Below, piece by piece: positions 1 to 16,292 of a DNA stretch of 17,401 nt. This stretch comes from Candidatus Micrarchaeota archaeon (lineage in GTDB: Archaea; B1Sed10-29; WALL01; WAMD01). The notes beneath the pieces are model-generated. The model was not told the DNA's origin, searched no databases, and was given only the letters and a program-made list of their open reading frames with translations. Position numbers and translations under genes: made by a program. Positions within the stretch are counted from its first letter, which is position 1. Each line of letters opens with the position of its first letter. The stretch spans positions 1-17,401 of the forward strand of contig CAZZDL010000017.1 of NCBI GenBank assembly GCA_964652335.1, read 5' to 3'.

Positions 1-930
1 CAAGAACGCTCTACCGACAGCGTGTTTTAAGTTAGACCCTTGGGAAATATCTCCAGTAACTGTAAGTGGGCTTTGCACTTCTACTCCTCCTTCAAAATCG
101 CCGTTATAGTTAATGATAAGTTTGTCATTACCATCGGAATGAACCAATGCTCTCTGATTTGTCTTGCTACCTATATCTCTTCCGTCATTCTTTCCTAAAA
201 CGAAATCTGAACCGTTTACATACAACCGCCCTCCGACAACCAGGGTTCCACTAACATCCAAATTCCCACCCACCTCTGCGTTCGCATTTGCAATAAGGTC
301 TCCAACGAGATCAAGCTCTCCTGTCATGTTTACCCTACCACTGCCTCCAGAGAGAACAAGATCTCTCCCTACTGAATAAATAACAAAATCATTTCCATCT
401 CCATAATTAGGATTGTTTTTGTTGTACATTATTCCACCAACGTATGTTCCACCCGCATTATTTACCTTTATGTATTGGTATCCGTTCGTAGTATCATCTA
501 CTCCCATAGTCAATGCATTAGTCGGATTCTCAACAAAGTCTGAAGGTGTCTTTCCTTGAAGAGTCTCAGATTCAAATGAATATGGAGAAATGCCAAGCTT
601 TACTCTTGTGAAGTTCTCTCCATTGACCTTGATCTCCAGCCACAGGTCTCTCCCGTCAAATACGCTTTCAGGAAAAGGATTCGTATCTCCAAGGTATGTG
701 GAGAATACTCCGCTTTGCACATTCAGCGTCTTGCTCTCGCTCCAAAGCTGAGTCCCGCCTGTATCACTGTCATATATAGCAAAGACAAAAGGAACATCTC
801 CATTAACAGGATTTCCATACGAGTCCGTCAGTCTCCCAATCAATGGAATGTTCTTTGCCATGGCTAATGGCATTATCAAAGCCATTAAGGCAATAAGAAC
901 GACCCAAAAAATTGCTCTAATTTTAATCAT
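1..930 (-). CDS. Secreted tail-fibre-like (trimeric fibre/adhesin) protein, 5' part; runs off the window edge and is absent from the ORF track
   Basis: Manual translation from ATG at 930 gives 310 stop-free codons to base 1: MIKIRAIFWVVLIALMALIMPLAMA-KNIPLIGRLTDSYGNPVNGDVPFVFAIYDSDTGGTQLWSESKTLNVQSGVFSTYLGDTNPFPESVFDGRDLWLEIKVNGENFTRVKLGISPYSFESETLQG...VGGNLDVSGTLVVGGRLYVNGSDFVLGKNDGRDIGSKTNQRALVHSDGNDKLIINYNGDFEGGVEV... It has a Sec signal peptide and a GAGGTG RBS at 937-942. Confidence 0.85.
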   Translation of the reverse strand, partial: MIKIRAIFWVVLIALMALIMPLAMAKNIPLIGRLTDSYGNPVNGDVPFVFAIYDSDTGGTQLWSESKTLNVQSGVFSTYLGDTNPFPESVFDGRDLWLEIKVNGENFTRVKLGISPYSFESETLQGKTPSDFVENPTNALTMGVDDTTNGYQYIKVNNAGGTYVGGIMYNKNNPNYGDGNDFVIYSVGRDLVLSGGSGRVNMTGELDLVGDLIANANAEVGGNLDVSGTLVVGGRLYVNGSDFVLGKNDGRDIGSKTNQRALVHSDGNDKLIINYNGDFEGGVEVQSPLTVTGDISQGSNLKHAVGRAFL

Positions 931-1007
931 GCAAACCACCTCTATCCGCCTCACAGCTACATTCTGATAAATCAGACACCAAATTTAAACGTTTCCCGGA
1001 CTGGTAT

Positions 1008-1020
1008 AAAAACTTTTAAA
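1008..1020 (+). promoter_or_regulatory. Candidate archaeal BRE/TATA promoter for the 1044 gene (likely leaderless)
   Basis: AAAAAC-TTTTAAA ends 23 nt before the ATG at 1044, and no SD is present. Confidence 0.5.
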
Positions 1021-1043
1021 CTAGACATTCCTAGACTAGAAAC

Positions 1044-3233
1044 ATGGAGAACAAAGCTATTGCGTTCACATTTATATCCTTATTTCTAATATCGCTAGCC
1101 TTTGCAAATTACACTGTTAGCTTTTCACCAGACAACTTTTCATTTTTCCCAAATGAAACTAGAGATTACACAGTCAAGCTAGTGAACAATGACCACGCCT
1201 TCAATGCAACTGTTACAATTAAATCCCTAGACACGACCTTGTTCCTAGTGAATAATAGTCAATCTGTAAATATAGAAATAGTCAACTGGGGTGTAGGAGA
1301 CGCATTCAACATACCAATAAACATAACCACGGCAGTAAGCGCAAATTTTAGTGATTCTGCAAATCTAAAAATAAACATCTACGACGAGGACAATGACTCA
1401 GATGTATACACTAGCTACAAGGAAGTTTCAATAGTAACACCTACCGGGTTGACTTACAGTCTAAACGCTAGTTTATCTGATGTTTCCACTCTAACTATTA
1501 TCGTTTTGTTTAACGATGATAGGAACTCAACAGAAATGAATGATGCATTAGTAAAAGACCTATTTGACTCATGGGCCAATGTAACTGCCAATGAAGAATT
1601 AATAGCATCAGGTACAAGTGACAATCTCACTTGCAAACTAGATCTCATAGGAAAAATAGGAAAAGCCGAACTTAACTACGGAGTAAACTATTCAACTGGA
1701 AGCCTTAACGAAAAGGCAAGTATAGAACTAGCCTATGAGCTGCAGTTAAACGCAACAGCCACATATCTAGGAGATATAAACTATTACTATCCACTAACTG
1801 AACCAGTAAAATCTGGAACATTAATTTGCGTTGAGGGGAATGTTACATACGATGGAGTATTCCCTCTAGGTTATTTTGGAGAAGACTATACACTAAACAT
1901 GACAGTAAAAAATAATGTAACCACAACGTATGAACTAACTCCAGATAATTATGGAAAATTCAAAAAATGCTTTAAAGCATCAAACGAAACAGGGAATTAT
2001 ACAATTACAATAGAGGCCATTGGAGTAAATAACTTAAAGGCCAATTGGAGCCATGACTTTAAAGTCAGTAACATAAAGGAATACAAACCAGAGGAAAACG
2101 TTATAACGCCAGAAGTTGCGGTCAGCTTGAGCGGAGATAATTTAACACTCGAAAACAAAAAGAGTATATATCTATTTGGTTGGCTAACTCTGAATGAAGA
2201 TAGCGAGTTTAAACATCTCGTCATTGGAAACAATAAAACATACATAAGCCTGGAACCAAATGGTAAAGTTACAATAAAGCTGAACATCTCAGCTGTTGAA
2301 GGCTGCCCACCAGGAACATACAAAATAAATGGAAAACTAGAAACTGCACTTGGAACAATACCGTTTTCCATAAGCTACAATGTGGCTCCAGAGACTGAAT
2401 CCATTGGTTGCAAGAGGTATTGGGAAAAATCTGAAAACAAAACAAGGATAATTTTGTACGCAGCAAATCCAACTGACTCAAAGGTTTCAATGCTAATAAG
2501 AGATGAAATACCAAAATCAGTAGTAAGTAATCTTAGCTTCTTAGAACCAGATCAGGATAACGAGCAAAGAGCAAAGAACTGTGAAGATGAAACCTGTGTG
2601 ATAGACATTGCAAAATCAACAAAAGACTGCGGTGTATGTGAATCGCAAAAATGCTGGGAGGAATGCATAAATGCATATTTACAATCTCCAGGAAACAAAA
2701 CCTACCCAATAATATTCATGCAAAAACCAACAGTAATAAAAAACGATCCTGTGGTCGCTTGGAACATAACCTTGGATCCAAATAGCGCATACAAGATAAC
2801 ATATATTATTGAAAACTCAACCAATCCTATGGAATTTCCTGAACCTATGGTGGATTATTCAGAAATTAAAACAATCACTCCGGCTGTCAATCAGACCAAC
2901 GAGACAAATCAGAGCCAATCCGAAGAGACAAACCAAAGTCTAATAGTGTATGAAAAAGAAAACGACCTGTTAATGCCAAGTATAACTGCTGCAATAATCG
3001 TGGCATTGGGATTAGGTATAGTCTTTTACATAAAGTTTAGAAAAAAGATAGAAAAAGAGCTTGAAAAGAGAGAAGGAGGAAGCGTTGAAACCCTTACTAA
3101 GCTAGTGAAACCCGAAGAACCTAAAGAAGAAAAAGAGATAATAAAAGAGGTGAAGAAAGAGAAGAAACCAAAGAAGAAGGAAAAATCCCCTGAAGAGGGA
3201 TTAGACGCCATTGGCGGAACATTCTTCAGATGA
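1044..3233 (+). CDS. Large secreted, C-terminally membrane-anchored surface glycoprotein (S-layer/Ig-like domains)
   Basis: N-terminal signal peptide (MENKAIAFTFISLFLISLAFA), roughly 30 N-x-S/T sequons, beta-rich body, six-Cys cluster, NQT/NET/NQS linker, TM helix (ITAAIIVALGLGIVFYI) and a K/E-rich cytoplasmic tail. Confidence 0.8.
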   Translation: MENKAIAFTFISLFLISLAFANYTVSFSPDNFSFFPNETRDYTVKLVNNDHAFNATVTIKSLDTTLFLVNNSQSVNIEIVNWGVGDAFNIPINITTAVSANFSDSANLKINIYDEDNDSDVYTSYKEVSIVTPTGLTYSLNASLSDVSTLTIIVLFNDDRNSTEMNDALVKDLFDSWANVTANEELIASGTSDNLTCKLDLIGKIGKAELNYGVNYSTGSLNEKASIELAYELQLNATATYLGDINYYYPLTEPVKSGTLICVEGNVTYDGVFPLGYFGEDYTLNMTVKNNVTTTYELTPDNYGKFKKCFKASNETGNYTITIEAIGVNNLKANWSHDFKVSNIKEYKPEENVITPEVAVSLSGDNLTLENKKSIYLFGWLTLNEDSEFKHLVIGNNKTYISLEPNGKVTIKLNISAVEGCPPGTYKINGKLETALGTIPFSISYNVAPETESIGCKRYWEKSENKTRIILYAANPTDSKVSMLIRDEIPKSVVSNLSFLEPDQDNEQRAKNCEDETCVIDIAKSTKDCGVCESQKCWEECINAYLQSPGNKTYPIIFMQKPTVIKNDPVVAWNITLDPNSAYKITYIIENSTNPMEFPEPMVDYSEIKTITPAVNQTNETNQSQSEETNQSLIVYEKENDLLMPSITAAIIVALGLGIVFYIKFRKKIEKELEKREGGSVETLTKLVKPEEPKEEKEIIKEVKKEKKPKKKEKSPEEGLDAIGGTFFR

Positions 3234-3278
3234 CCCTCTTGTCATCATAGTTTCCTCAGCACTCATAAGGCTCATCAT
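3226..3278 (-). ncRNA. Archaeal box C/D 2'-O-methylation guide sRNA (dual guide)
   Basis: Minus strand reads ATGATGA (C, 3278-3272) GCCTTATGAGTG (12-nt guide) CTGA (D', 3259-3256) GGAAACT ATGATGA (C', 3248-3242) CAAGAGGGTCAT (12-nt guide) CTGA (D, 3229-3226). All four boxes are perfect consensus with canonical 12-nt spacers. Confidence 0.93.
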
Positions 3279-3300
3279 CTAATAGCTCTTTGCCTTTTCA

Positions 3301-3308
3301 TATTTAAA
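3301..3308 (-). promoter_or_regulatory. TATA box for the C/D sRNA
   Basis: TTTAAATA on the minus strand ends 22 nt upstream of box C, the spacing expected for a TSS at about 3280. Confidence 0.6.
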
Positions 3309-3364
3309 TAATTATGCAAATTTCCAAATGAGATACAATGCTAACAACATTAAGACAAATCCTA

Positions 3365-3907
3365 TCATCTAACTCTCACCTTCTTCCTTGGACAAAACTC
3401 AATCTCACATCTTTCACATATCAATCCTTTCTTTCTAGTGTCAGGTGTAAATATTTTAACATTCCCTATCCCTGAAACTAGTTCATTCAATTTGTCATGC
3501 GGTATTGGCCTATCATATATCACATAGAAATTTCCATTCACATAGCTAAAAGAAACAATGCTTGCCAAACCGGACAGCTTATCCAAAAACTCTATCGCTC
3601 TATCCGGCGACGCCTCAAACTTAACTACTTCATATCCAATGTCTGGTGCTACCTTAGAAGGATCACCAACAGCGGATAATCCAGAGAAGATTGACCTCAA
3701 AACGAAGTTTCTCCTAACATCCCTTGTAAATGCATAGATGGTTTTCCTATCTACCCCAAGCTTAGAGGCTAGGCTAGACATACTTACATTAACTCCATTC
3801 ACAAAGAATTTATCTCCCTTGACAGATATACCAGAAGATAATAAGAAATTGGCAAGTTTCATCTTCTTCTTTGAATTGCTAAATAATGTATAAATGGCTG
3901 GAAACAT
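3365..3907 (-). CDS. COG2150-type predicted transcriptional regulator (HTH + ACT-like domain) with C-terminal CxxCx4C motif
   Basis: FLLSSGISVKG..FFVNGVNVSMSSLASKLGVDRKTIY (HTH) and VAPDIGYEVV are typical of this archaeal family; ends ICERCEIEFCPRK. Start re-called to ATG 3907, since the track's GTG 3922 lies in the GAGGGGG RBS. Confidence 0.8.
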   Translation of the reverse strand: MFPAIYTLFSNSKKKMKLANFLLSSGISVKGDKFFVNGVNVSMSSLASKLGVDRKTIYAFTRDVRRNFVLRSIFSGLSAVGDPSKVAPDIGYEVVKFEASPDRAIEFLDKLSGLASIVSFSYVNGNFYVIYDRPIPHDKLNELVSGIGNVKIFTPDTRKKGLICERCEIEFCPRKKVRVR

Positions 3908-3947
3908 AAAATCCCCCCTCACTTAATTCAACAAATTTATGGAATAT

Positions 3948-3960
3948 GGTTTATATAACC
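3948..3960. promoter_or_regulatory. Near-palindromic bidirectional TATA element between divergent genes
   Basis: GGTTTATATAACC reads as a TATA box on both strands and lies between the starts at 3907 (-) and 3992 (+). Confidence 0.5.
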
Positions 3961-3991
3961 GTAAGTTAAAATAAAACGGGGAGGAATCTAG

Positions 3992-4288
3992 ATGATAACA
4001 AAAGAGGAAGTTATCGAAAAACTTAAAGAAGTAATAGATCCCGAGCTAGGATTTAACATAGTGGATCTCGGCTTAATCTATGGAGTAGAGACAAATGGAG
4101 ACGATGTAAGCATTAAAATGACTCTAACATGGCCTGGATGTCCTTTGGCTCAGCAACTGGTAGGTAAGGCAAGGGAAGCTGTGGAATCAATCCCAGGAAT
4201 AGGAAAAGTCAATGTGGAGTTAGTGTTTGATCCTCCATGGAGTCCAGACATGATGAGCGAGGAGATAAAGAAAAAGATAATGGGCTAG
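3992..4288 (+). CDS. sufT: DUF59/SufT (PaaD-like) metal-sulfur cluster assembly protein
   Basis: Motifs VIDPELGFNIVDLGLIY, MTLTWPGCP and VELVFDPPWSPDMM; GGGGAGG RBS. Confidence 0.92.
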   Translation: MITKEEVIEKLKEVIDPELGFNIVDLGLIYGVETNGDDVSIKMTLTWPGCPLAQQLVGKAREAVESIPGIGKVNVELVFDPPWSPDMMSEEIKKKIMG

Positions 4289-4617
4289 ATCAAGCTTTTT
4301 AGCTCATCGCTTACAACCTTCAAATAATTGTTTAGTCCCATATGAACAAAATCCCTGTTATTTAGCATTCTGTATATGCGCTTTTGTGGATTCAAGACTT
4401 TGATTATTATCCTATCCACATGCTTAGAATTCTCTAGATAATCTAAAACTTCTTCCAACAAATCAGAGTGTCTATCCACAGATATAACTCCATCTATCCA
4501 CTCACCAGGTAGTCCAATTATTTCCCTAGGTCCCTTTTTGGCTAGTACTATCTCTCCCTTTTCATGCCTTCGCCTAAAAACTAGCTTGTCCTCCCCTCCA
4601 ATAATCTCTAAACTCAT
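4285..4617 (-). CDS. Hypothetical protein, possibly a degenerate GNAT fold
   Basis: 110-aa ORF filling the gap downstream of the reductase. The C-terminal pattern LLEEVLDYL...VDRIIIKV....RIYRMLNNRDF echoes GNAT motifs A/B. Confidence 0.6.
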   Translation of the reverse strand: MSLEIIGGEDKLVFRRRHEKGEIVLAKKGPREIIGLPGEWIDGVISVDRHSDLLEEVLDYLENSKHVDRIIIKVLNPQKRIYRMLNNRDFVHMGLNNYLKVVSDELKSLI

Positions 4618-4665
4618 TATTGGTCGCCTTGATTTATTTCTAGAAAAAGAAGTATTTACGCTTTT

Positions 4666-5766
4666 CTATATTGTACCAAATCCTTTCAAAAATCTGGAAA
4701 TTTTAAGTGCCTTTACTGGATGTCTTGAAAGATAGGATAAAAATACTGGAAAGGCGTTTTCTAGTCCTTCCATATCTGCGTGTTTCTCTAGAATTGAAAT
4801 AATTTCATCGTCCACAAGGCTAATCAACTCCTCAAAATCAGAATCTGAAAGCCTCCTGTAAAAATCATAAACTAGCTTGTGCATCCTCAGCTCCCTTCCA
4901 AACTTGGCTCTCCACTCACTCTCATAGCTAGACAACTCCCTTCCTTCTCCCAGTGTCTTGCCTAGGATCCTAGCACACGCTCCTCCTATAGCTATTCCCC
5001 CTCCAGTGCTGGCCTTTACCTGGGCGGCAGCATCACCGACTAGGGCTAAACTCCCATGCACAGCTGGTTTTCCATCGTATATGGGAATAAGCCCACCTGT
5101 TCTAGAGACTGGTTCCCATGGGTAACCTCTGCGTTTAGCTAGGAATCTTAAGGCTGTCTCTGGATCATAGTTTCCAAATTTCCTATTGGCTAGGCTAACA
5201 TCATATGCCAATCCCATTCTGGCTAAACCCTCACTAACAGGGATAACCCATGCAAAAAAACCAGGAGCAAATGATCCAAAATGCAATTCTACAGAATCCA
5301 TATCTGTCTTCATTTTATTCTCAATCTGGAATGCAGATAATAATTTCCTGTTTATTCCCACAGATTTGGCAAACAAGCTATTCGCTCCATCAGCTCCAAT
5401 TACTATGCCATTTAGCTTTGTTACCCTTTTTCCTAGGATTATTTCTGCCCCTTCTGACCTGGCTCCATATGCAAGGATGTTGTCAAATGCATCCCTATCC
5501 AGAACCAGAGCATAACCCTTTCCTTTGCTCAGCTCTATGTACTTCCCTGAAGGGGAAAATATCTTTGCACTAGAAACAGAATTCAAAACAGCATCTTCAT
5601 ACTCAATATCTAGACCGTCTAACCCAGATCTAGAAACCAACCCACCACATGCCTTTCCTCCTATCTTCCGCTTTGCCTCATACACAGTTACACTAGCACC
5701 TAGCCTGCTGGCCTCCCTAGCAGCCAGGAGGCCAGCAGGTCCAGCCCCTACTACGCTAATCCTCAT
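4666..5766 (-). CDS. Geranylgeranyl reductase-family FAD-dependent oxidoreductase (DGGR-like)
   Basis: GAGPAG Rossmann motif, ACGG, LDRDAFD, IGADG, PGFFAWVIP and LVGDAAAQVKASTGGGI. Confidence 0.9.
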   Translation of the reverse strand: MRISVVGAGPAGLLAAREASRLGASVTVYEAKRKIGGKACGGLVSRSGLDGLDIEYEDAVLNSVSSAKIFSPSGKYIELSKGKGYALVLDRDAFDNILAYGARSEGAEIILGKRVTKLNGIVIGADGANSLFAKSVGINRKLLSAFQIENKMKTDMDSVELHFGSFAPGFFAWVIPVSEGLARMGLAYDVSLANRKFGNYDPETALRFLAKRRGYPWEPVSRTGGLIPIYDGKPAVHGSLALVGDAAAQVKASTGGGIAIGGACARILGKTLGEGRELSSYESEWRAKFGRELRMHKLVYDFYRRLSDSDFEELISLVDDEIISILEKHADMEGLENAFPVFLSYLSRHPVKALKISRFLKGFGTI

Positions 5767-7082
5767 CTAGAAGCCTCCACCAAGGATTTGAACTTCTCCA
5801 CTAGTTCATTGACTTCTTCATTGGTCTCTGCTTCAACTGTCACCCGTATTATAGGTTCTGTATTGCTCTTCCTGATGAGGACCCATCCCTTACCCAAATC
5901 TATCCTTATTCCATCCATGGTATTAATCTCATATTCGCTGGCTAGTTTCTGCTTTAATTTCTCCATGACTGCGTCCTTTTCCCTTTCACCAACAGCAACC
6001 TTGACTTTTTTCCTTGGGTATGTTTCTATCTCGCTGGCAACTTCGCTAAGCTTATCTCCAGCTATTCTAGCTAATTCCATCACCACAGGAACAGAATCAT
6101 CAAATGGTAAAACACTTGGGATTATGAAATGTCCACTAGATTCTACACCAATCAAAGCATTTAACTCTTTAACATAATGGGTCATGAACGTATGTCCAAC
6201 AGGTATCCGTACCACCTCTATGCCCAAAGGCTCTAGATTTCTCTCCAGAGCCATACTACATTCAACATTGGCTACCACTTTGCCTCCTCCATGTTCCTCT
6301 GCCAGGTCTTTAGCAACTATTACAGTTATCTGTTCAGGAGTAAGGAAATTCCCCTTATTGTCAACAACGGTAACCCTATCCCCATCCCCGTCAAAGCCAG
6401 CCCCCATGGCAAGACCTTTGCTCAGAACTGTTTCCCTCAAGGTCTGGAGTCCATCTGGGTTTGGCTCTGGTGGTCTGTCACTCAAAGCTGGGTTTGGTTT
6501 TGAATACAAGAACACTGCGTTAGAATTGACAGAATTAAACAGCTCCTCTGCTACTAAGCTCACTGCCCCTCCACCACAGTCTATGCCAATGCCCATTCCA
6601 TTAAAATCGTACCTTGAGGAAAAATGATCCACATAGTCCTTTGCGTAATCCACGCTTTCATAACTACCATAATCCCTCCATGACTTCTTTGACGCTCCCT
6701 CTATTGAAAGCCTTTTTATCTTTGCCAGATCGTCTTCATAAAATCCAACTCCATCCGAATAGTAAAATTTCAGCCCATTGTACTCTGGAGGCAAATGTGA
6801 GGCGGTTACATAGGCAGTAGTCTTTCTATCCTCCTTCCATCCAGCAAAGAGAGCTACTCCAAAGCTAGCCACCCCTTGAAAAGCTAGATCACCCCCACCT
6901 TCTAGGAAACCTGCCATAAACGCTAGGGCTAGACTAGGACTTGTCTTCCTAATGTCATGAGAAAGGGTGGTGGATGAATAATTATCAGCTAGGGCTAGAC
7001 CTATCCTGTAGGCTGCATCTCCATCCAGCTCAGATGGAACCTTCCCCCTAATGTCGTAGGCTCTAAATATGTAGTCCTCCAT
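5763..7082 (-). CDS. Phosphomannomutase/phosphoglucomutase (alpha-D-phosphohexomutase)
   Basis: FRAYDIRG, phosphoserine loop TASHLPPEYNGLK, metal loop FDGDGDR, sugar loop ESSGH and RKSNTEP; 4-bp ATGA overlap with the reductase. Confidence 0.95.
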   Translation of the reverse strand: MEDYIFRAYDIRGKVPSELDGDAAYRIGLALADNYSSTTLSHDIRKTSPSLALAFMAGFLEGGGDLAFQGVASFGVALFAGWKEDRKTTAYVTASHLPPEYNGLKFYYSDGVGFYEDDLAKIKRLSIEGASKKSWRDYGSYESVDYAKDYVDHFSSRYDFNGMGIGIDCGGGAVSLVAEELFNSVNSNAVFLYSKPNPALSDRPPEPNPDGLQTLRETVLSKGLAMGAGFDGDGDRVTVVDNKGNFLTPEQITVIVAKDLAEEHGGGKVVANVECSMALERNLEPLGIEVVRIPVGHTFMTHYVKELNALIGVESSGHFIIPSVLPFDDSVPVVMELARIAGDKLSEVASEIETYPRKKVKVAVGEREKDAVMEKLKQKLASEYEINTMDGIRIDLGKGWVLIRKSNTEPIIRVTVEAETNEEVNELVEKFKSLVEASR

Positions 7083-7102
7083 CTCTATCCCCTATGTGGC
7101 AT

Positions 7103-7163
7103 TGTATAGATACAGCATATATAAAGGCAAAAGGGTTTAATAATACTTCATACAAATTCATAC
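7103..7163. promoter_or_regulatory. Divergent promoter region with candidate RHH operators
   Basis: Minus-strand TATA (TTTATATAT, 7117-7125), plus-strand BRE/TATA (AAAAGGG-TTTAATAA, about 7129-7143), palindrome TGTAT-AG-ATACA at 7103-7114, and direct repeat TTCATAC at 7147-7153 and 7157-7163. Confidence 0.55.
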
Positions 7164-7181
7164 CATTCTAAGAATAAAGGG

Positions 7182-7931
7182 ATGAATATGGAGAAAGATA
7201 AGAAGGAGAGAATAACCATAACCCTGTCTAGGAAACTACTGGAAAAAATAGATAAGCTAGTGGACGGGGCTGACATTAGGAACAGGAGCCATGCAATAGA
7301 GAGACTAATAAAGAGTGCACTGGGCATGGGTCCAAGGACTGCTGTGATACTGGCTGGAGGTAGAAAGGAGTTTAGATCTGGAAAGATCTACCATGGAAAA
7401 ACGATTTTACTGCACTTGGTGGACTGGATAAGGAAGTATGGTGCAGATGAAATAATAATAGCAGGCCCGAGAAAGAAGATTGCAAATCTGGTTCCAAATG
7501 ATGTGCGCATTCAGGATGAGAGAAGCCCACTTGGAACAGCTGGGGCGTTGGCAAAACTGAAAGATGAGCTGAGCCAAACGTTCCTTGTGGTGTACGGAGA
7601 CATATTCACAAATCTAAATCTGAAGAAATTCTACAGCTTCCACAGAAAGAACAATGGAATTGTCACCATGGCGTTGAAGAACGTAGATAATCCAAGCAGG
7701 TTCGGATCCGTGGAACTAGAGGGAGTAACAGTAACCAAGCTTGTGGAAAAGGGGGAGCCTGTAACTAATCTAGTAAATGCAGGGATCTACCTTATGGAAC
7801 CAGAAGTGCTTGAGATGTGTAAAGAGGGGAAGGACATAGTCAGAGATGTATTGCCTCAATTGATAGAACAGGGAAAGGTTTTTGGATATCCTTTCCCTGA
7901 GGACTGGGTTGATGTTAAATGGATATCTTAA
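7182..7931 (+). CDS. Ribbon-helix-helix (CopG/NikR-like) domain fused to a degenerate sugar-phosphate nucleotidyltransferase domain
   Basis: N-terminal ERITITLSRKLLEKIDKLV....RNRSHAIERLI (RHH), then AVILAGG, PLGTAGAL, VVYGD, RFGSV, NAGIY and WVDV. The RLxPxTxxxPK loop is missing. Confidence 0.85.
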   Translation: MNMEKDKKERITITLSRKLLEKIDKLVDGADIRNRSHAIERLIKSALGMGPRTAVILAGGRKEFRSGKIYHGKTILLHLVDWIRKYGADEIIIAGPRKKIANLVPNDVRIQDERSPLGTAGALAKLKDELSQTFLVVYGDIFTNLNLKKFYSFHRKNNGIVTMALKNVDNPSRFGSVELEGVTVTKLVEKGEPVTNLVNAGIYLMEPEVLEMCKEGKDIVRDVLPQLIEQGKVFGYPFPEDWVDVKWIS

Positions 7932-9058
7932 TGGTAAATCCGATGTTCATCCCGTATTGGGGAGGCACAGAGAAAGTCATATATGAAATAGGCAGAAGAC
8001 TGTCTAGCGACTTTGAGATAACAGTGCTTACTACGAAAATGAAAGGAACTCCAAAGGAAGAGGAAATTGAGGGAATGAGAGTTCTCAGAACCAATGCGCT
8101 AATATTGAACAAGCTTCCCCATCCATTGCCTCCTCCTTACCCTATAGCTCCAAAAAAGGTAAAGCTACTGGGAGATGAGGCTAAAAGACATAGGGTGGTT
8201 CATTTTCATAATAGGTTCTACTATAACCCGATAGACTTTTTGCTAGTGAAGAAATTGCGTAGAGAATTAGTGCTAACGCTGCATAATGCTAGGCCAGAGG
8301 GGATAGATCCAATAACGGACTTCCTAGGAACAGCGTATGATGACACAGTCGGTAGGATAATAATGGAAACATGTGACCATATAACTGCTGTCTCTAGGGA
8401 TACACTAATAACAACGGTTCCAGAGGAACTGAGGTATAAAGCAAGAGTAATATACAATGGTGTGGATGAGAAGCGATTTAATCCAAAAGTTGATGGATCA
8501 GAGGCTAGAGAATATCTTGGATTAACAGATGAAGTAATGATACTAAGCGTTGCAAGGCTGGTTGAGCAAAAGGGGATGAAGTACCTAATAGAAGCCATGA
8601 AAGGGTTGGATGCGAAGCTAGTGATACTCGGGAGAGGTCCAAAGGAGAAATCATTGAAGAAGCGGGTGAAAAAGCTTGGAATTGAGGAAAACGTGATATT
8701 CGTCACTGAAAGGATACCTGAAGATATGCTGCCAAAGATGTACGCGGCTTCTGATATATTTGCACTTCCGTCTTTGTATGAACCGTTTGGCCTTGTGGCT
8801 GTGGAAGCAATGGCATCTGGAAAACCAGTGGTTGTATCTAGGATTGGTGGTTTGAAGGAAATAGTCACCCCTGAAGTTGGATTCCTAGTTGAACCTAGAG
8901 ACCCAGCCGACATGGCCAGTAAGCTAGCTCTGCTGCTATCCAGCCCAGAGCTTAGAAAGAAGATGGGGAAGGAAGCTAGAAAGAGGGTTGAGGAAAACTT
9001 TACGTGGGATAAGATTGTGAAGGATTACAAATCATTCTATGAAGAGGTGTTGGAATGA
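7919..9058 (+). CDS. GT4-family (GT-B) glycosyltransferase
   Basis: PYWGGTE, IYNGVD, VARLVEQKG, YAASDIFALPSLYEPFGLVAVEAMASGKPVV (Ex7E) and FTWD. Confidence 0.95.
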   Translation: MDILMVNPMFIPYWGGTEKVIYEIGRRLSSDFEITVLTTKMKGTPKEEEIEGMRVLRTNALILNKLPHPLPPPYPIAPKKVKLLGDEAKRHRVVHFHNRFYYNPIDFLLVKKLRRELVLTLHNARPEGIDPITDFLGTAYDDTVGRIIMETCDHITAVSRDTLITTVPEELRYKARVIYNGVDEKRFNPKVDGSEAREYLGLTDEVMILSVARLVEQKGMKYLIEAMKGLDAKLVILGRGPKEKSLKKRVKKLGIEENVIFVTERIPEDMLPKMYAASDIFALPSLYEPFGLVAVEAMASGKPVVVSRIGGLKEIVTPEVGFLVEPRDPADMASKLALLLSSPELRKKMGKEARKRVEENFTWDKIVKDYKSFYEEVLE

Positions 9059-9975
9059 AAGCTATAATTCTAGCTGGAGGATTCGCTAAAAGGCTATGGC
9101 CACTGACATTGAGAAAGCCTAAGCCGTTGCTACCCGTGGGGGGAAAGCCAATAGTAGATTACATAATGGAAGGAATTGAAAAAATTCCAGATATTGAAGC
9201 TGTCTATGTGTCTACGAATAGGGCATTTGAAGATGATTTCAATGATTGGCTTGCACATAGAGATTTCAATAAGGCTGTGGAAATAGTAGTTGAGGAGGCA
9301 AAGAAAGAAGAAGAAAAGTTTGGAAGTATAGGTGCATTGAATCAACTTTTCTCATGGAAAGGAAAAGATGACTATCTCGTAATTGCGGGAGACAACCTAT
9401 CTTCTATTGATTTGTTCTCATTTGTGAAGGCATTTGACAAGGATACACTGATCGCATTGTATGATCTTGGAGATCCAAACATTGCAAAGAAAAGGTATGG
9501 AGTGGCTGTTTTGGATGAGAACGGATTTGTAAAGGAATTCCAAGAGAAGCCAGAGAACCCCAAATCTAGCCTAGCTTCAGCTGCCGGATACATATTCCCA
9601 AAGGACGTCATTCCATTGTTTAGTGAATACCTAGCCAACAAAAATAACCCAGATGCACCGGGTTATTTCCTTCAATGGCTAAAGGATAGAAGGCCAGTAA
9701 AGGGGTTTGTGTTTGATGGATACTGGTATGATATTGGATCGCCAGAGATGTTTATAGAAGCTAATAGGCAATTCTCAGGAGAAAGCGTTGTGATTCTCGG
9801 AGACGTTGAGTTAGAAAACAGCATTCTAGAAAACTGTGTCGTGTTCCCTGGAGCAAGAATTAAGGACTCCCATCTGAAGAATTGTATAATTGCGGATAAT
9901 GCAGTGATAGAGAACGTCAAACTTAGAGACTCAGTTATAGGAGAGCATGGGAAAGTTCTAGGCCATATAGACTAG
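9055..9975 (+). CDS. Sugar-1-phosphate nucleotidyltransferase (NDP-sugar synthase) with C-terminal left-handed beta-helix
   Basis: ILAGGFAKRLWPLT..KPKPLLPVGGKP, IAGDN, YGV, FQEKP and WYDIG, followed by hexapeptide repeats; ATGA overlap with the GT4 gene. Confidence 0.93.
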   Translation: MKAIILAGGFAKRLWPLTLRKPKPLLPVGGKPIVDYIMEGIEKIPDIEAVYVSTNRAFEDDFNDWLAHRDFNKAVEIVVEEAKKEEEKFGSIGALNQLFSWKGKDDYLVIAGDNLSSIDLFSFVKAFDKDTLIALYDLGDPNIAKKRYGVAVLDENGFVKEFQEKPENPKSSLASAAGYIFPKDVIPLFSEYLANKNNPDAPGYFLQWLKDRRPVKGFVFDGYWYDIGSPEMFIEANRQFSGESVVILGDVELENSILENCVVFPGARIKDSHLKNCIIADNAVIENVKLRDSVIGEHGKVLGHID

Positions 9976-11228
9976 CTTTCAGAAATTAACTCTTTTGCCC
10001 TGTCCAAAGCTCTTTTTATTATTTGTTCTTCGTTTGGCACTCGTCTATCACGCATGACTATTTTTCCATTGATCACAACGTCTGTTACTACGTCCCCAGT
10101 GGCAGAGTAAACCAGATTAGAAATTAGATCTATATGTGGAATCATTTTGTGATGATTCAAATCCACAAGTATAAAGTCTGCAAGCGCTCCTTCCCTTATG
10201 CCGTAGTCAAGGCCTAAAGCCTTTGCTCCCTCGTAGATGCCCATTCCCAATGCGTCTTCTGCTTTCATTATCTCTGGATTCCATCTGTGAGCCTTTTGCA
10301 GGACAGCAGCTATCTTCATTTCCTCAAACATGTCAAGGTTGTTGTTTGATACAGCCGAATCTGTTCCAAGACCAACTGTCAGTCCTGCCTCCTTCATCTC
10401 TGGCCATGGCATTACTCCTCCGGTGGCTAGCTTCATATTGCTGGTGGGATTGTGAGCTATTTTTACGCCATGCTTAGCTAATATTCCTATCTCCCCCTTT
10501 GTTACCCAAATTACATGAGCAGCTACCAGTCTATCGCAGAGGAAGCCAATCTTTTCTAACCAAGGCACAGGCCTCTCTCCTGTTGCCTTCACGTGTCCTT
10601 CGTTCTCTTCTCTAGTCTCAGCCAAGTGAAAATGAATCAAAGTGTCATGTCTCTCTGCTATGTCCTTAGCCTTTAACAGCGTTTCTTCTCCGCATGTGTA
10701 AACTGCATGGGGTCCAATGCTCGGCTTAACCAACTCATCGTCCTTCCATCTTTTTATGAACTCTTCAGCTAGCCTGGCATGTGGTATTTGGCTCTTGTCT
10801 GGATCAACCATTGCCCAGCTTAGAAACGCTCTAATGCCTAATTCCTTTGCTGCCTTTGCCACGCCATCCATATACCAGTACATATCAAGGAAAGCCGTAG
10901 TTCCTGTCTTTATCATTTCTAGGATGGCCAAGCTAGAACCTATGTACATGTCCTCCTCTGTGAGCTTTGGCTCTATTTTCCATATTTTCTGAAGCCAAGG
11001 CATCAGCTCCAAATCATCGCTGACTCCCCTCATTATGGACATTGGTGAATGAGTATGAAGATTCACCAGTCCAGGCATGATTAGTTTTCCCCTAGCGTCT
11101 AGAACTTCCTCTGCTTCAACGCTTGCATTCCCAACCTCTACTATGCGACCGTCTTCAACGTAGACGTTTCCTTCTGATATGCCAAAATCTGGACGCAGAA
11201 GTTTTGCGTTTTTTACTATGAGTGACAT
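9972..11228 (-). CDS. mtaD: Metal-dependent amidohydrolase, 5'-methylthioadenosine/S-adenosylhomocysteine (5'-deoxyadenosine) deaminase family
   Basis: PGLVNLHTH, GPHAVYT, HFHLAET, AAHVIW, HNPTSNMKLATG, GLGTDSAVSNNNLDMFEEM and GALAD. Confidence 0.88.
   Translation of the reverse strand: MSLIVKNAKLLRPDFGISEGNVYVEDGRIVEVGNASVEAEEVLDARGKLIMPGLVNLHTHSPMSIMRGVSDDLELMPWLQKIWKIEPKLTEEDMYIGSSLAILEMIKTGTTAFLDMYWYMDGVAKAAKELGIRAFLSWAMVDPDKSQIPHARLAEEFIKRWKDDELVKPSIGPHAVYTCGEETLLKAKDIAERHDTLIHFHLAETREENEGHVKATGERPVPWLEKIGFLCDRLVAAHVIWVTKGEIGILAKHGVKIAHNPTSNMKLATGGVMPWPEMKEAGLTVGLGTDSAVSNNNLDMFEEMKIAAVLQKAHRWNPEIMKAEDALGMGIYEGAKALGLDYGIREGALADFILVDLNHHKMIPHIDLISNLVYSATGDVVTDVVINGKIVMRDRRVPNEEQIIKRALDRAKELISES
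11197..11222. repeat. 26-bp perfect direct repeat, copy 1 (codons 3-11 of mtaD)
   Basis: AGAAGTTTTGCGTTTTTTACTATGAG, identical to 12294-12319. Confidence 0.95.
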
Positions 11229-11261
11229 GATGATTTTTAGATAGACCAGATATTAAAATTG

Positions 11262-12233
11262 TTAGTGTTTTATGCGCTTAATCACTTTCTCTCTAACGAG
11301 CCTCTCTAGGCTAGGAGAATTAAGGGCGCCGGTCTGAGCTGCTGCCAAATTTTCTGTTACTGCTTTATCAAGCTCCTCTTTAGATATCCGCTCAGTCAGA
11401 CCTGCTCTTTCTAAAGCTCCAAAATTTCTCAAGACATGTGTGGGATTTTCCTTGAAAATATTGTGTATATCATCTGGTGTGACTTTAGTAGTCAGACCAA
11501 GTTCATGTAAAGTCGGAAAATGCTCAAGTATAGTTGGATCTTCTCTTATCGCCCTCTTCAAGTGCTCTGGTTTAACTGCCCTATGAAGATCTGAGTCCAC
11601 AATTGATGGAATATGATGTATGTAATTGATTAGCGAACCTGGATGCTCACTTAAATGTTTAGACAACTCATCGGGAGATAATGCCTTAGATAGTCCTACC
11701 CTATGTATATCTCCTATATTTGATAATACGGCTTTTGGATTACTACTAAGTGTTCTTTTTATGTCGTCTGGAGTTATCCGTGAAAGCAATTCCCTGTCCA
11801 ACTTAGGTATGTTGTCCAAAATGGCTCTGGGATGTGCCTCAAAAACTCTTTTTATGTCATCTGGAGACAACCCTGGCTTTATTCCTGCTCTTTTAATTTT
11901 GTCATAATTATCCAACACAAAATAAGGGTTCCTATTAAAAGCACTCAATATGTCTTCTGATCTTATGTTAGTCGCTAGCCCCAACTCATGAAGCTCATCA
12001 ATATTATCTAGGACAATGTTTGGCATCTCATTGAATATCTGCCTTATGTCTTCGGGTTTAATTATTTCTTTTATCGCGTCTTCAAGACCGTTGGCTCTAA
12101 GTTCTCTAAGATTTCCAATTACAGCATAGGGGTTTTCCTTAAATGCCTTCTTTAGATCTCTTTTCGTTCTAATCCTTCTTCCTGCTAACTCAACCCCTCT
12201 TGTCCTAAATATTTTAAGTGGTTTGCCAGGCAT
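11262..12233 (-). CDS. Orphan alpha-helical tandem-repeat protein (8-9 repeats of about 32 aa)
   Basis: Repeat consensus (I/L/V)(S/T/K)PxDIxxxFxxNPxxVLxNxxxLxxxGL. A TATA (TTTATTAA, 12256-12263) about 22 nt upstream suggests its own leaderless transcript. Confidence 0.85.
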   Translation of the reverse strand: MPGKPLKIFRTRGVELAGRRIRTKRDLKKAFKENPYAVIGNLRELRANGLEDAIKEIIKPEDIRQIFNEMPNIVLDNIDELHELGLATNIRSEDILSAFNRNPYFVLDNYDKIKRAGIKPGLSPDDIKRVFEAHPRAILDNIPKLDRELLSRITPDDIKRTLSSNPKAVLSNIGDIHRVGLSKALSPDELSKHLSEHPGSLINYIHHIPSIVDSDLHRAVKPEHLKRAIREDPTILEHFPTLHELGLTTKVTPDDIHNIFKENPTHVLRNFGALERAGLTERISKEELDKAVTENLAAAQTGALNSPSLERLVREKVIKRIKH

Positions 12234-12283
12234 AAAAAGTTAAGAGAATCCAAGATTAATAAACATTCCTCTGTTGTAACTCG

Positions 12284-12337
12284 TTAGGAGCCAAGAAGTT
12301 TTGCGTTTTTTACTATGAGCGAAGTTTGCTTTGACAT
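12284..12337 (-). pseudogene. Remnant duplicate of the mtaD 5' end (MSKQTSLIVKNAKLLGS*)
   Basis: ATG at 12337 is preceded by a GGTGGT RBS just after the aminopeptidase stop. It encodes SLIVKNAKLL, identical to the mtaD N-terminus, then stops at TAA 12284-12286. Confidence 0.75.
12294..12319. repeat. 26-bp perfect direct repeat, copy 2 (intergenic)
   Basis: AGAAGTTTTGCGTTTTTTACTATGAG, identical to 11197-11222 and 1097 bp away. Confidence 0.95.
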
Positions 12338-12358
12338 TCAACCACCAGATAACAACTA

Positions 12359-13708
12359 TCACAGCTTACTCCCAATGAACGCTTTAAACGCTAGGTAAGC
12401 TGAATACAAATCTGCTTTGCTAATTATCTCAAACGGAGAGTGCATTGACAAGACTGGAACTCCCATGTCAATAATATCCATTCCGTACCTAGCCAGATAG
12501 GCTGCGACTGTCCCGCCACCGCCAGCATCCACTTTGCCAAGCGTTCCCGGCTGCCATGGAACCTTTGCGGAGTCTAATATCCTTCTAATGCTAGCAACGA
12601 ATTCTGCCCTTGCCTCGCTTGCCATGTACTTTCCACCATAGCCTGTGTACTTTGTAATAATAACTCCCCTCCCAAGAACGCCTGCGTTCTTCTTTTCAAA
12701 TACGTCCTTATACAATGGATGTATCCCTGCGTCTACATCTGCAGATATTGCAACAGAATTAAGCAATGCCAAGTCTGGATCCTTAGCAATCAAACTGACC
12801 ACATGCCTCAGGAAATGGGATTTGGCAGACGTATTGCCTTCGCTTCCTATCTCTTCCTTGTCAAAGAAGAAAGCAACCACAGTCCTGGCTGGGCGTTTGG
12901 TACCTAGCACTGCTTTCAGAACAGTAAACACCGAACTCCTATCGTCATGGCCGTAACCGCCAATCAATCCGCGATCAAAACCCACATCCCTAGGCTGGCC
13001 AGCTGGCACTACTTCTAGGTCAGCAGATATCAAATCTGCTTCTTCAATCCCATACTTCTTATTCAATATGTCTAGTATCGCCTTCTTTATGCTAGCTTCC
13101 TCTTTACCCTTTTCCTTGTACTTCTTTGGTATATGACCTGCCACTAGATCTAGGTTCTCTCCTTCAATGAACTCCTTTGCTGGTTTTTCCAACTGCTTTT
13201 TAGCCAGGTGAGGCAATAAATCAGGAATCACTAGAACTTCGTCTCCTTTTTCTCCGAGTTTAACATTGATCTTTTTCCCATTTTTCTTGACAATGACTCC
13301 ATGCATAGCTAGCGGATGATTCAGCCATTGATACTTCTTTATCCCACCGTAATAATGCGTATCCAGCAAAGCCAGATTAGAGTCTTTATCCTCGTACAAT
13401 GGAACCATCTTAAGGTCTATTCTAGGAGAATCCAAATGAGCAGCAAGAACAAAGAGGCCATTCTCTGGCCTTTCCATTCCTTTGACGACTAATGCAATTG
13501 CCTTTTCTTTAAAGGATATGTAGAATCTTTCCTTTGATTTTGGCCAGGGCTTAAAACCAGACTTCTCAGCTAAGCGAATTATCTCACTAACTACTTCCCT
13601 TTCAGTTTTTGCATTCCCTATGAACTTTTTGTATTCATCAGCAAACGAGAACACGTCCTTGTTATTGAGCATGCCCCAGGCATCTGGCCTCTCATATTCT
13701 AGCTTCAT
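12359..13708 (-). CDS. M18-family (aspartyl/aminopeptidase I-type) metallo-aminopeptidase
   Basis: AHLDSPRIDLK, HYYGGIKKYQW, PDLLPHL, GYGHDDR, DKEEIGS, SADV, GGGGT and LSMHSPFE. Start re-called to ATG 13708, which has a GGTGAT RBS at 13713-13718 and avoids overlap with lysS. Confidence 0.93.
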   Translation of the reverse strand: MKLEYERPDAWGMLNNKDVFSFADEYKKFIGNAKTEREVVSEIIRLAEKSGFKPWPKSKERFYISFKEKAIALVVKGMERPENGLFVLAAHLDSPRIDLKMVPLYEDKDSNLALLDTHYYGGIKKYQWLNHPLAMHGVIVKKNGKKINVKLGEKGDEVLVIPDLLPHLAKKQLEKPAKEFIEGENLDLVAGHIPKKYKEKGKEEASIKKAILDILNKKYGIEEADLISADLEVVPAGQPRDVGFDRGLIGGYGHDDRSSVFTVLKAVLGTKRPARTVVAFFFDKEEIGSEGNTSAKSHFLRHVVSLIAKDPDLALLNSVAISADVDAGIHPLYKDVFEKKNAGVLGRGVIITKYTGYGGKYMASEARAEFVASIRRILDSAKVPWQPGTLGKVDAGGGGTVAAYLARYGMDIIDMGVPVLSMHSPFEIISKADLYSAYLAFKAFIGSKL

Positions 13709-13818
13709 GATTATCACCGTTAGGTTTATTGATAATCTGGATAAAAAGCTTTTCTTGGCTTTTGGCAAAAACGGATATTAGGAAAACCATAAAAATAATG
13801 ATTAAGAAAATATCTTCC

Positions 13819-15312
13819 ATGACAGAGGAAAAGAGAACTGGAAAAGCTGAAAGCGAATCAAGAAAACCAATAGAAAATCTTATAGAAGTGAGAATTAAGA
13901 AATTGGAAAAGCTAAGAGACATGGGAATAGATCCTTACCCATATAAGTATGAAAGAGATCACTATGCTGAAGAAGTCAAATCCAAATTCTCTAATGTTGG
14001 GGAAGAACCAGAAGGGAATGTTAGTGTAGCTGGGAGGATAATTGCTTTTAGAGACATTGGCAAAATAAGCTTTGCACACATTCAAGACCAGACCGGCAAA
14101 CTGCAGATAGTTTTCAAGAAGGATGAACTAGGAGAAAGGTATAAACTGTTAAAGTTGTTGGACATTGGAGACATCATTGGAGTTAAAGGACCTGTATTCA
14201 AGACAAAGAGGGGAGAGATAAGTGTCCTGGTTAAGGAATTCCAATTACTAACGAAGTCATTAAGGCCATTGCCTGAAAAATATCATGGATTAAAAGACGT
14301 GGAGCTAAAGTACAAAAAAAGATATCTTGACTTGATAATGAACAGAGAAAGTCTAGAAACATTCTTGAAACGAGCTGTCATTGTAAAGAAAATAAGAGAG
14401 TTCATGGACTCTAAGGGATTCGTAGAAATGGAAACGCCAATACTGGAAAAGGTGTATGGTGGTGCAGCAGCAAGGCCATTCATAACGCACTTAAATTACT
14501 GGGATATGGACGTGTTCCTAAGAATCGCATTGGAGATACCACTGAAAAAATTACTAGTTGGAGGATATGACAAAGTCTATCAAATAGGAAGAGTATTCAG
14601 AAACGAGAGTATAGACTCTACCCATAACCCAGAGTTCACAATGATAGAAGCCTACTGGGCATACACTGATTACAACGATATGATGAACCTAATTGAAGAA
14701 ATGATCAAATGCATTGCAAAGGATGTCATAAAGAAAGATAAGGTAACGTTTAGAGATCGCAAGATAGATCTAACAAAGTTTGAAAAAATGACCATGAGAG
14801 AAGCATTTGAAAAATTCTATGGAAAAGACATTATAGACAAAAGCCTGGACGAGCTAAAGACCATAATAGAAAAAGAAGCAATCCCGTACGACGGGAAGCT
14901 GACCAGAGCAGATGCACTTGACTTGATCTGGAAGCATTATGTAGAAGACAATTTGATAAATCCAGTCTTTATAATTGATTATCCAGAAGAAACATCTCCT
15001 TTATGCAAGCAGCATAGATCCATTCCTGGTTTCATAGAGAGATCAGAATTGTTTATAGGCGGAATGGAGCTAGCTAACATTTATTCAGAGCTAAACGATC
15101 CCATAAGGCAAAGGAAGCTATTAGAGGAACAAGCTAGGGAAAGAGAACTAGGAATAGAAACTGCCCAGCCATACGATAAAGACTTTGTTGAGGCTTTAGA
15201 GTACGGGATGCCGCCTGCCAGTGGAATGGGAATCGGGATAGACAGGCTAGCAATGATCCTACTTGAAAAAGACAGTATCAAAGATGTTATTTTATTCCCG
15301 TTTGTTAAATAG
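13819..15312 (+). CDS. lysS: Lysyl-tRNA synthetase, class II
   Basis: DPYP, OB-fold AGRI...GKISF..IQD.TGKLQ, RPLPEKYHGL, RYLDLI, GGAAARPF, motif 2 FRNESID.THNPEFT and motif 3 EYGMPPASGMGIGIDRL. Start re-called to ATG 13819, because the track start overlaps the divergent promoter region. Confidence 0.96.
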   Translation: MTEEKRTGKAESESRKPIENLIEVRIKKLEKLRDMGIDPYPYKYERDHYAEEVKSKFSNVGEEPEGNVSVAGRIIAFRDIGKISFAHIQDQTGKLQIVFKKDELGERYKLLKLLDIGDIIGVKGPVFKTKRGEISVLVKEFQLLTKSLRPLPEKYHGLKDVELKYKKRYLDLIMNRESLETFLKRAVIVKKIREFMDSKGFVEMETPILEKVYGGAAARPFITHLNYWDMDVFLRIALEIPLKKLLVGGYDKVYQIGRVFRNESIDSTHNPEFTMIEAYWAYTDYNDMMNLIEEMIKCIAKDVIKKDKVTFRDRKIDLTKFEKMTMREAFEKFYGKDIIDKSLDELKTIIEKEAIPYDGKLTRADALDLIWKHYVEDNLINPVFIIDYPEETSPLCKQHRSIPGFIERSELFIGGMELANIYSELNDPIRQRKLLEEQARERELGIETAQPYDKDFVEALEYGMPPASGMGIGIDRLAMILLEKDSIKDVILFPFVK

Positions 15313-15341
15313 TTTAAATGTTAATAGTTAAATTACACACA

Positions 15342-15375
15342 ATTTTTGTACGAAAAATGCGCAATATTTAAATAG
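15342..15375 (+). promoter_or_regulatory. Promoter/operator region of the TA operon
   Basis: Near-palindrome ATTTTTGTACGAAAAAT (15342-15358) upstream of TATA TTTAAATA (about 15368-15375); GGTGAT RBS at 15397-15402. Confidence 0.45.
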
Positions 15376-15405
15376 AATTAAATTTATTACATTATTGGTG
15401 ATAGT

Positions 15406-15639
15406 GTGAATATATCATTAACAGGAATTCCACTTGAAATAATAAATAAAATGGTAAAGCTTGGTTTCGCAAGGACAAGGTCAGAAGCAATAAGGTACGC
15501 TATCCTTTATTTCGGGGAAACAAAACACTTGCTGGATGAAGACTTACTTGTAAAGAGAAAACTAGACAAAATAGACAAAGAAATATCCAGAGGGAGAAGA
15601 AGAACAATTTCATACAAAGAGGCATTAAAGGTGAAGTGA
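15406..15639 (+). CDS. RHH (CopG-like) antitoxin
   Basis: MNISLTG..LEIINKMVKLGFARTRSEAIRYAI RHH signature and an ISYKEALK tail typical of RelB-type partners; overlaps the toxin start. Confidence 0.8.
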   Translation: MNISLTGIPLEIINKMVKLGFARTRSEAIRYAILYFGETKHLLDEDLLVKRKLDKIDKEISRGRRRTISYKEALKVK

Positions 15640-15905
15640 TGAATCCCAATTTTAAAGCAGAGTTTGACGAGGACTGGCTCAAATTCTGGAAGAAAGTTCC
15701 TCATAATATGAAACTGCGGATAAAACGAAAAATAGACAAAATAATATCAAACCCAAAAGGCAGACATCTTAGACATGGTTTAGATTTTTTTGTGGCAGAG
15801 GTTGGACAATACAGAATAGTTTACAGAATATTTGAGAATGACAGGAAAGTAAGGTTTTATTTTGTTGGTAAACACAAAGAATATGAAAAATGGTATTCTT
15901 CGTAG
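15639..15905 (+). CDS. relE: RelE/ParE-superfamily type II toxin
   Basis: Small basic protein with IKRKIDKIISNP...HL....FFVAEVGQYRIVYRI......VRFYFVGKH. TGATG coupling with the antitoxin; an alternative GTG start lies at 15636. Confidence 0.85.
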   Translation: MNPNFKAEFDEDWLKFWKKVPHNMKLRIKRKIDKIISNPKGRHLRHGLDFFVAEVGQYRIVYRIFENDRKVRFYFVGKHKEYEKWYSS

Positions 15906-16292
15906 TTACTCAAGAAGGTGGTGGTCCTTCGGGCTCCATGGTTTTCTAGTTATCACTAAAATCTTAAATCCTTTCTTGCTAAACGCTTTATGTGGAGTCC
16001 CAGGAGGGATATGTAAGAAATCCCCTTTATTTAGTTCAATGATTTGATCTCCAACTCTAACCTTACCCTTTCCTTCGGCTACATAGTAGTATTCATTCAT
16101 CTTTTTGTGATAATGAAGCTTAGCCTCCCTTACATCTGCCTCTGCTACGCCTATTTTCCCATCAGAAAAAATCTCTCTTATTACTTCCCCTGGAGGTGTT
16201 ACTACATTGCCCTCATGGGCTCTAACAACCGTCGGTCTCTTCTTTCCTCTGGTCCTGCCTTTAAGCCAACTAGCTATTCTTTTAACTGGCAT
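15906..16292 (-). CDS. Cupin-domain protein with a basic N-terminal extension
   Basis: Cupin motifs LHYHKKMNEYYYVAEGKG and GDFLHIPPGTPH. BRE/TATA GGAAAAGA-TTTATATT lies about 20 nt upstream, suggesting a leaderless transcript. Confidence 0.9.
   Translation of the reverse strand: MPVKRIASWLKGRTRGKKRPTVVRAHEGNVVTPPGEVIREIFSDGKIGVAEADVREAKLHYHKKMNEYYYVAEGKGKVRVGDQIIELNKGDFLHIPPGTPHKAFSKKGFKILVITRKPWSPKDHHLLE

Follow-up and report, generated by a model that had tools for sequence, protein, structure and literature searches.

A dual-guide box C/D sRNA gene in a Micrarchaeota genome with predicted targets in elongator pre-tRNA-Met and 23S rRNA helix 69

Features of the locus

The window is a 17,401-nucleotide stretch of DNA (GenBank assembly GCA_964652335.1, contig CAZZDL010000017.1, positions 1 to 17,401 of the forward strand) from a Candidatus Micrarchaeota archaeon, whose genome (designated G000) measures 821 kb and is 96.8 % complete. 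Its size and relatives suggest a DPANN-type archaeon. The window was matched in 8 sequencing runs, none of them listed as an RNA data set; the best were hydrothermal-vent metagenomes, one of which may be its source. Its minus strand carries, at positions 3278-3226, the core of an element that is, judged from its sequence, an archaeal box C/D guide sRNA gene. In the host's phylum 31 genomes were examined; G001, G002 and G003 are of the same family, and G002 and G003 carry orthologues of the sRNA.

Read along the minus strand, the core consists of box C (AUGAUGA, 3272-3278), a 12-nt D' guide (3260-3271), box D' (CUGA, 3256-3259), a 7-nt linker (GGAAACU, 3249-3255), box C' (AUGAUGA, 3242-3248), a 12-nt D guide (3230-3241) and box D (CUGA, 3226-3229), which agrees with the four perfect boxes and two 12-nt guides recognised in the initial annotation. 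The box order C, D', C', D with guides of about 10 to 12 nt is that of the class, and both guides form at least nine contiguous pairs with a stable RNA, including a Watson-Crick pair at +5 (the D guide on the 23S rRNA of G003). Box C and the D' guide are identical in G002 and G003 and box D' is conserved; box C' reads GUGAUGA in the orthologues. The G-GAAA-C mini-loop described at the outset is present in the linker, where a one-pair stem with a GAAA loop is possible, but both orthologues have a 3-nt linker instead, and the loop was rejected as a conserved element.

The strict C-D'-C'-D pattern occurs four times in the 821-kb genome but never in 10 genomes of that size simulated with an order-4 Markov model, so the four-box pattern is not expected by chance. 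In an Rfam search of the window, archaeal C/D families matched below threshold only: the best match, to sR41 (RF01126), scored 28.3 bits against a gathering score of 54 and covered only model positions 26-53, sR-tMet (RF02163; gathering cut-off 50 bits) gave no match in the window at E <= 5, and the orthologues likewise stayed under every Rfam cut-off. Membership in the sR41 and sR-tMet families was rejected on these thresholds. Because all matches are sub-threshold, threshold-based annotation would overlook the gene, as had been anticipated.

A convergent plus-strand ORF (1044-3233, 729 aa) overlaps the sRNA by 8 nt; its last three codons, stop included, are covered on the opposite strand by box D and 4 nt of the D guide, in keeping with the overlap of box D originally reported. 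The product had been called a surface protein. Its hydrophobic N- and C-terminal segments point to a putative surface or membrane-anchored protein, and Pfam adds only a sub-threshold MBG match. In G002 and G003 there is no such antisense overlap, and the sRNA is separated from the convergent gene by a PIN-domain gene. The overlap could suggest that the sRNA is an antisense regulator, or a 3'-end signal, for the convergent gene, which we consider scarcely credible: the overlap is kept in neither G002 nor G003, a function for it was rejected on that ground, and its simplest explanation is as a by-product of the loss of the PIN-domain gene. That gene begins a few bases past box D in both orthologous loci (L005:1010-1474 and L006:1011-1490, both minus strand) and is missing from the window; a protective link between a wobble-methylation guide and an adjacent putative ribonuclease gene would be speculation.

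On the other side of the sRNA, the convergent intergenic gap described earlier is indeed convergent but not empty, as it holds a hydrophobic, unannotated 18-codon ORF (3312-3368, minus strand) upstream of the TATA-like box; G002 and G003 have counterparts of 26 aa in the corresponding position. This small ORF, a neighbour outside the sRNA, overlaps the stop of ORF 3365-3922 by 4 nt (ATGA). The TATA-like box, TTTAAATA (3308-3301, minus strand), a putative promoter of the sRNA, begins 3 nt past the stop of the small ORF and lies 22 nt upstream of box C, where it had been placed in the initial annotation; its first T stands 30 nt before box C, and the motif stands at 34 nt in both orthologues. 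A TTTWAW motif is found at 30-35 nt in 18 of 40 host tRNA genes, over a background of 0.002 per position. Independent promotion, as claimed at first, is plausible in view of a TATA-like motif at tRNA-gene distance that both orthologues keep. The 30-nt distance is at the short end of the TATA range, and the start site would fall almost on box C. Alternatively, the A/T run may act as a terminator, with the sRNA cut out of a longer transcript, or read-through from co-directional upstream genes could extend into the sRNA.

The protein machinery that such an RNA implies is present in the host genome, where fibrillarin (E 5e-81) and Nop5 (E 8e-73) are encoded by adjacent genes on contig C30 and an L7Ae-family protein (E 5e-32) by a gene on contig C10.

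Target of the D' guide

Among the 41 tRNA calls made by ARAGORN in the host, the best match of the D' guide is the precursor of elongator tRNA-Met, whose gene (G000:C27:1332-1444, minus strand) has a 38-nt intron and is wrongly labelled as Ser by ARAGORN. The duplex of 11 bp (10 Watson-Crick pairs and one terminal G.U) spans the exon/intron junction, running from position 31 to four intron bases, and the fifth nucleotide from box D' pairs with C34, at +5. Its energy is -16.2 kcal/mol, compared with -9.9 kcal/mol for the 8 bp formed with the mature tRNA. The predicted role of the D' guide is thus to direct 2'-O-methylation of C34 in elongator pre-tRNA-Met before splicing, which both supports the tRNA wobble base named in the initial annotation and narrows it to the precursor.

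In all 33 parsed genomes that carry the guide pair (35 were tried), the genome's own pre-tRNA-Met pairs with the tRNA guide over at least 10 bp. Guide position 9 and intron base 1 are C:G in 32 and U:A in 5 of 38 genomes, with one mis-registered; the host family has U:A, and G004, a genome of the same taxonomic order, has C:G. A C at guide position 9 cannot pair with A38 of the mature tRNA. Across other archaea, the D' guide and the tRNA-Met intron co-vary.

The same guide forms 10 bp with the host pre-tRNA-Ile(UAU) (-13.9 kcal/mol) and, on the initiator pre-tRNA-Met with its intron, 9 bp (-12.2 kcal/mol), and might act on one of these as well. We hold this to be very unlikely, as the Ile(UAU) duplex has G.U at +5, where a Watson-Crick pair is reported to be essential for methylation (PMC6009581), and shrinks to 6 bp in G002 and G003 despite their identical D' guide, while G000 is the one genome in which the initiator match was compared. 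Pre-tRNA-Ile(UAU) was accordingly rejected as a conserved target. The intron-containing tRNA-Ile(UAU) gene lies at G000:C13:2-112 (minus strand) and is also present in G001-G005, the introns sharing a short motif; in the 96.8 % complete host genome, a TiaS domain gave 0 matches and no tRNA-Ile(CAU) was seen. The initiator tRNA-Met gene, with an intron of about 415 nt (G000:C1:51156-51646, plus strand), directly follows another C/D sRNA.

Target of the D guide

The host assembly has no LSU rRNA match and short motifs recovered no rRNA from it; the helix-69 site was found in 9 of the 31 phylum genomes searched. The D guide of the window forms 10 Watson-Crick pairs with helix 69 of the same-family genome G003 (-17.3 kcal/mol), with C1920 (E. 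coli numbering) at +5, and the D guide of G003 itself forms 11. Taking the target sequence from G003, the guide is predicted to direct 2'-O-methylation of 23S C1920, and the expected site in the host 23S rRNA would be UGACCCUCUU at 1917-1926. The helix-69 target first put forward is supported by 10 bp on a same-family 23S rRNA, the host's own not being assembled. Together with the 11 bp formed by the host's own pre-tRNA-Met, this supports the initial view that one RNA appears to address both a tRNA wobble base and helix 69. Comparison of the contigs of 4 runs with the G003 23S rRNA gave pieces about 92-94 % alike in two runs, one of them spanning helix 69, which are not attributable to the host.

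The base next to box D pairs with 23S position 1916 in three of four genomes (G003, G149 and G174; not G130), a co-variation too weak to predict the host's base at 1916. The helix-69 site was assembled in none of the 5 genomes with a variant helix-69 guide.

It could be argued that the tRNA arm alone functions in the host and that the helix-69 arm is carried along as a passenger, or binds its site but does not lead to methylation. The host 23S rRNA is not assembled and the target is read from a relative, the helix-69 guide pattern is lacking in 28 of the 31 phylum genomes (with the site itself assembled in 9), and the second guide is an orphan in about 80 % of the tRNA-targeting sRNAs of Pyrobaculum (PMC6009581). 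Set against this, the D guide keeps 11 of its 12 positions across three genera although the adjoining linker changes, it matches helix 69 of G003 perfectly over 10-11 bp, and it is retained with a recognisable partner in 104 of the 119 public loci listed. A passenger arm thus appears unlikely, and methylation of C1920 is the preferred reading of the D guide.

A second use of the D guide on the tRNA-Met intron

Besides helix 69, the D guide may also grip a copy of the helix-69 site in the intron of pre-tRNA-Met, so that both arms hold one precursor. We put this forward as a tentative possibility. Such a grip could help to open the precursor structure for methylation of C34. The D guide forms, at intron bases 13-20, 8 consecutive Watson-Crick pairs with the intron in each of G001, G002 and G003 (shuffle p 0.001-0.004 each) and 8 pairs including one G.U in G000, compared with a longest Watson-Crick run of 5 in 19 control elongator-Met introns; the control introns of G005, G008, G009 and G011 were shortened in parsing, and in its complete form that of G005 has a longest run of 5. 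Of the 33 genomes whose two guides stand in the opposite order, 13 have UGACC in the intron, for the most part at a comparable position, and the 8-nt spacing between the two precursor sites would suit a single RNP. In G004, where the tRNA-Met guide has a different partner, that partner pairs over 6 bases with its own intron and over 3 with host-family introns.

Several observations weigh on the other side. The four family genomes are one lineage, hence one event, and it was noticed post hoc; the GACC part of the intron site is accounted for by hairpin pairing with the 5' end of the same intron; and in G000 the +5 pair on the intron is G.U. With G.U pairs allowed, 2 of 19 control introns reach 8 or more, and among the 33 genomes with the guide pair the runs are at most 4 in 17 and never exceed 6. 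The G004 match overlaps the splice-motif helix. In another phylum, that of G136, variable partner guides pair best with their own intron in 1 of 4 genomes, these being the 4 of 30 in which both partner guide and elongator-Met intron were obtained (0 of 29 in a further search). In Pyrobaculum, a conserved mismatch at +5 has been read as binding without methylation (PMC6009581).

Perhaps the intron carries a mimic of helix 69 on which the rRNA guide has a second role as a clamp, so that pre-tRNA-Met and pre-23S rRNA compete for one arm of one RNP, a reading that we advance with reserve. If it were true, the intron would have a job before splicing, the clamp would survive the exchange of the D and D' arms, and archaeal tRNA introns would gain a testable function.

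Conservation and guide order

Two of the three same-family genomes (G002 and G003) have both guides at the syntenic site, the third genome being 61 % complete, and the flanks and linker have diverged between host and orthologues while the guides have stayed, an outcome in favour of the gene in the conservation check proposed for relatives. Scanning the phylum with exact patterns gave the helix-69 guide in 3 and the tRNA-Met guide in 6 of 31 genomes; the sRNA is either patchy in the phylum or has drifted past exact search patterns.

When public genomes were searched with the helix-69 guide, at least 119 loci were obtained. Among those listed, 87 have the helix-69 guide at D' and a tRNA-Met guide at D, the order opposite to that of the host; 9 lie in a tRNA-Trp intron, 5 have a neighbouring 23S guide, 1 has a tRNA-Leu(CAA) guide, 2 are in the host's order and 15 are without a recognised partner. 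Both loci in the host's order match the family orthologues and hence are not independent. In the 80 listed loci with titles, the main class is mostly labelled Thermoplasmata, with one Altiarchaeota. The swapped order was seen only in the host family among the at least 119 matches listed, and a metagenome scan for it gave one locus (L148), identical to the window over 144 nt and therefore not independent. Of 61 genomes in the phylum of G136, 36 have a tRNA-Met guide, with an exact helix-69 partner in 1 of the 31 matches viewed; the phylum of G131 gave 3 matches among 251 sampled genomes. In G004 the tRNA-Met guide is at D' and its partner is a 16S C1402-type guide. As the tRNA-Met and helix-69 guides occur with several partners and in both orders, they are old modules with changing partners. 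The host's guide order could have arisen by circular permutation or by independent shuffling, which are indistinguishable here.

The 9 tRNA-Trp intron loci with the helix-69 guide at D' are L046, L048, L057, L068, L087, L092, L112, L120 and L144; a position-39 guide would be expected there, and a 6-nt precursor match near position 39 was seen by eye. At L188 (G172:C63:3505-3634) tandem copies of the tRNA-Met guide sRNA, about 110 nt apart, have different partner guides.

In the literature covered by the searches, no paper on the guide pair or its swapped order was found; the 18 tRNA-Met guide candidates of PMC2584109 may include the pair. In the part of supplement 1 of PMC4644070 covered by 5 of 5 tRNA-word and 14 of 15 rRNA-word matches, none of the 489 sRNAs has both guides.

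Insights from the genome sequence

Further C/D sRNAs of the host were seen at C1:51055 (plus strand), C9:16348 (minus strand), C12:14908 (plus strand) and C28:3689-3857 (plus strand), a tRNA-Trp intron sRNA included. One of their guides fits C34 of the host's own tRNA-Leu(CAA) over 11 bp, and others fit sites on the G003 rRNA that, by their position numbers, we take to be 16S C1402, the 23S P-loop and the A-loop; the C1 sRNA combines the tRNA-Leu(CAA) C34 guide with the 16S C1402-type guide. Judging by these predicted targets, the C/D set of the host is minimal and aimed at functional centres of translation.

In box C/D RNPs, L7Ae binds the kink motifs formed by the C/D and C'/D' boxes, Nop5-fibrillarin dimers then join the L7Ae-bound sRNA, and methylation falls on the target nucleotide that pairs with the guide five bases upstream of box D or D'; this mechanism is established for the family and would apply to the RNA of the window. 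We consider it highly probable that the locus yields, likely from a TATA promoter of its own, a box C/D sRNA about 55-60 nt long, with a D' guide that would direct methylation of C34 in pre-tRNA-Met and a D guide that would direct methylation of C1920 in 23S rRNA. The two guides would handle their substrates independently, and their placement on one shared RNA is most readily seen as an economical packing of two old guides that have been shuffled among partners.

This reading yields two modification predictions, Cm34 in tRNA-Met and Cm1920 in 23S rRNA, for an uncultured archaeon with a small genome, in which RNA-guided methylation would persist with a handful of guides aimed at the centres of translation although the genome has only 821 kb. 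The locus also offers a clean natural example of guides as swappable modules. On present evidence it reveals no new mechanism.

Comparison with known systems

The D' arm resembles sR-tMet of Haloferax volcanii (RF02163), also a stand-alone C/D sRNA with a guide on the anticodon loop and the first intron bases and with C34 as its target (PMC2584109). A pre-tRNA-Met C34 guide is likewise found in Pyrococcus sR49, the 3' half of sR41 (RF01126) and M. maripaludis sR102 (PMC4033218; PMC4644070). In the mode described for sR49 and sR-tMet, an exonic guide pairs into the intron of pre-tRNA-Met and methylation precedes splicing (PMC2584109), and the host D' guide likewise reaches C34 of elongator tRNA-Met through intron pairing. 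The difference lies in the arrangement: the sR-tMet/sR49 group carries this guide before box D and sR41 requires it there, whereas the host sRNA has it before D', with a helix-69 guide as its partner.

The D arm has a near-identical counterpart in N. equitans sR20, in the same register on helix 69 and also in the D position (PMC5389701; PMC4644070). For sR20, the source states that MS and RiboMeth-seq confirmed Cm1920 but does not show the data (PMC5389701), and its second guide targets 16S Gm1530, a different RNA, as in the two-RNA targeting of the host. In four species, RNA-seq has detected sRNAs with the same helix-69 guide (PMC4644070 supplement 1). A helix-69 guide like that of the host is carried by S. 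acidocaldarius sR20, M. kandleri sR47 and M. maripaludis sR104 (PMC4644070), but they and N. equitans sR20 lack its tRNA-Met partner guide. The Thermoplasmata-labelled and other archaeal sRNAs bear the host's two guides on one RNA, with helix 69 at D' and tRNA-Met at D.

Exchange of guides has precedents in Pyrobaculum sR56/sR57, where the D and D' guides have changed places, ascribed to circularisation and re-insertion or to guide replacement (PMC6009581), and in the circularly permuted C/D sRNA24 of N. equitans (PMC3491384); these exchanges are between related sRNAs, whereas the swap described here is between phyla. Dual guides make up about 20 % of the tRNA-targeting sRNAs of Pyrobaculum, where the composite sR12/45 has a C34 guide for tRNA-Val as one of its parts (PMC6009581); tRNA guides with a working partner are thus uncommon, though known before. 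Human SNORD97 and SCARNA97 give the same product, Cm34 on elongator tRNA-Met, but are separate RNAs (PMC6601510).

A search of the host for a stand-alone FtsJ/TlyA-family enzyme gave weak matches, the best of 24.5 bits. In bacteria, TlyA is such a stand-alone enzyme with the same product, Cm1920 in helix 69. By analogy, the host sRNA would work like sR-tMet at one arm and like N. equitans sR20 at the other. Each target already has published guides and their pairing on one RNA is common in public genomes, and what sets the host sRNA apart is the reversed order of the two guides.
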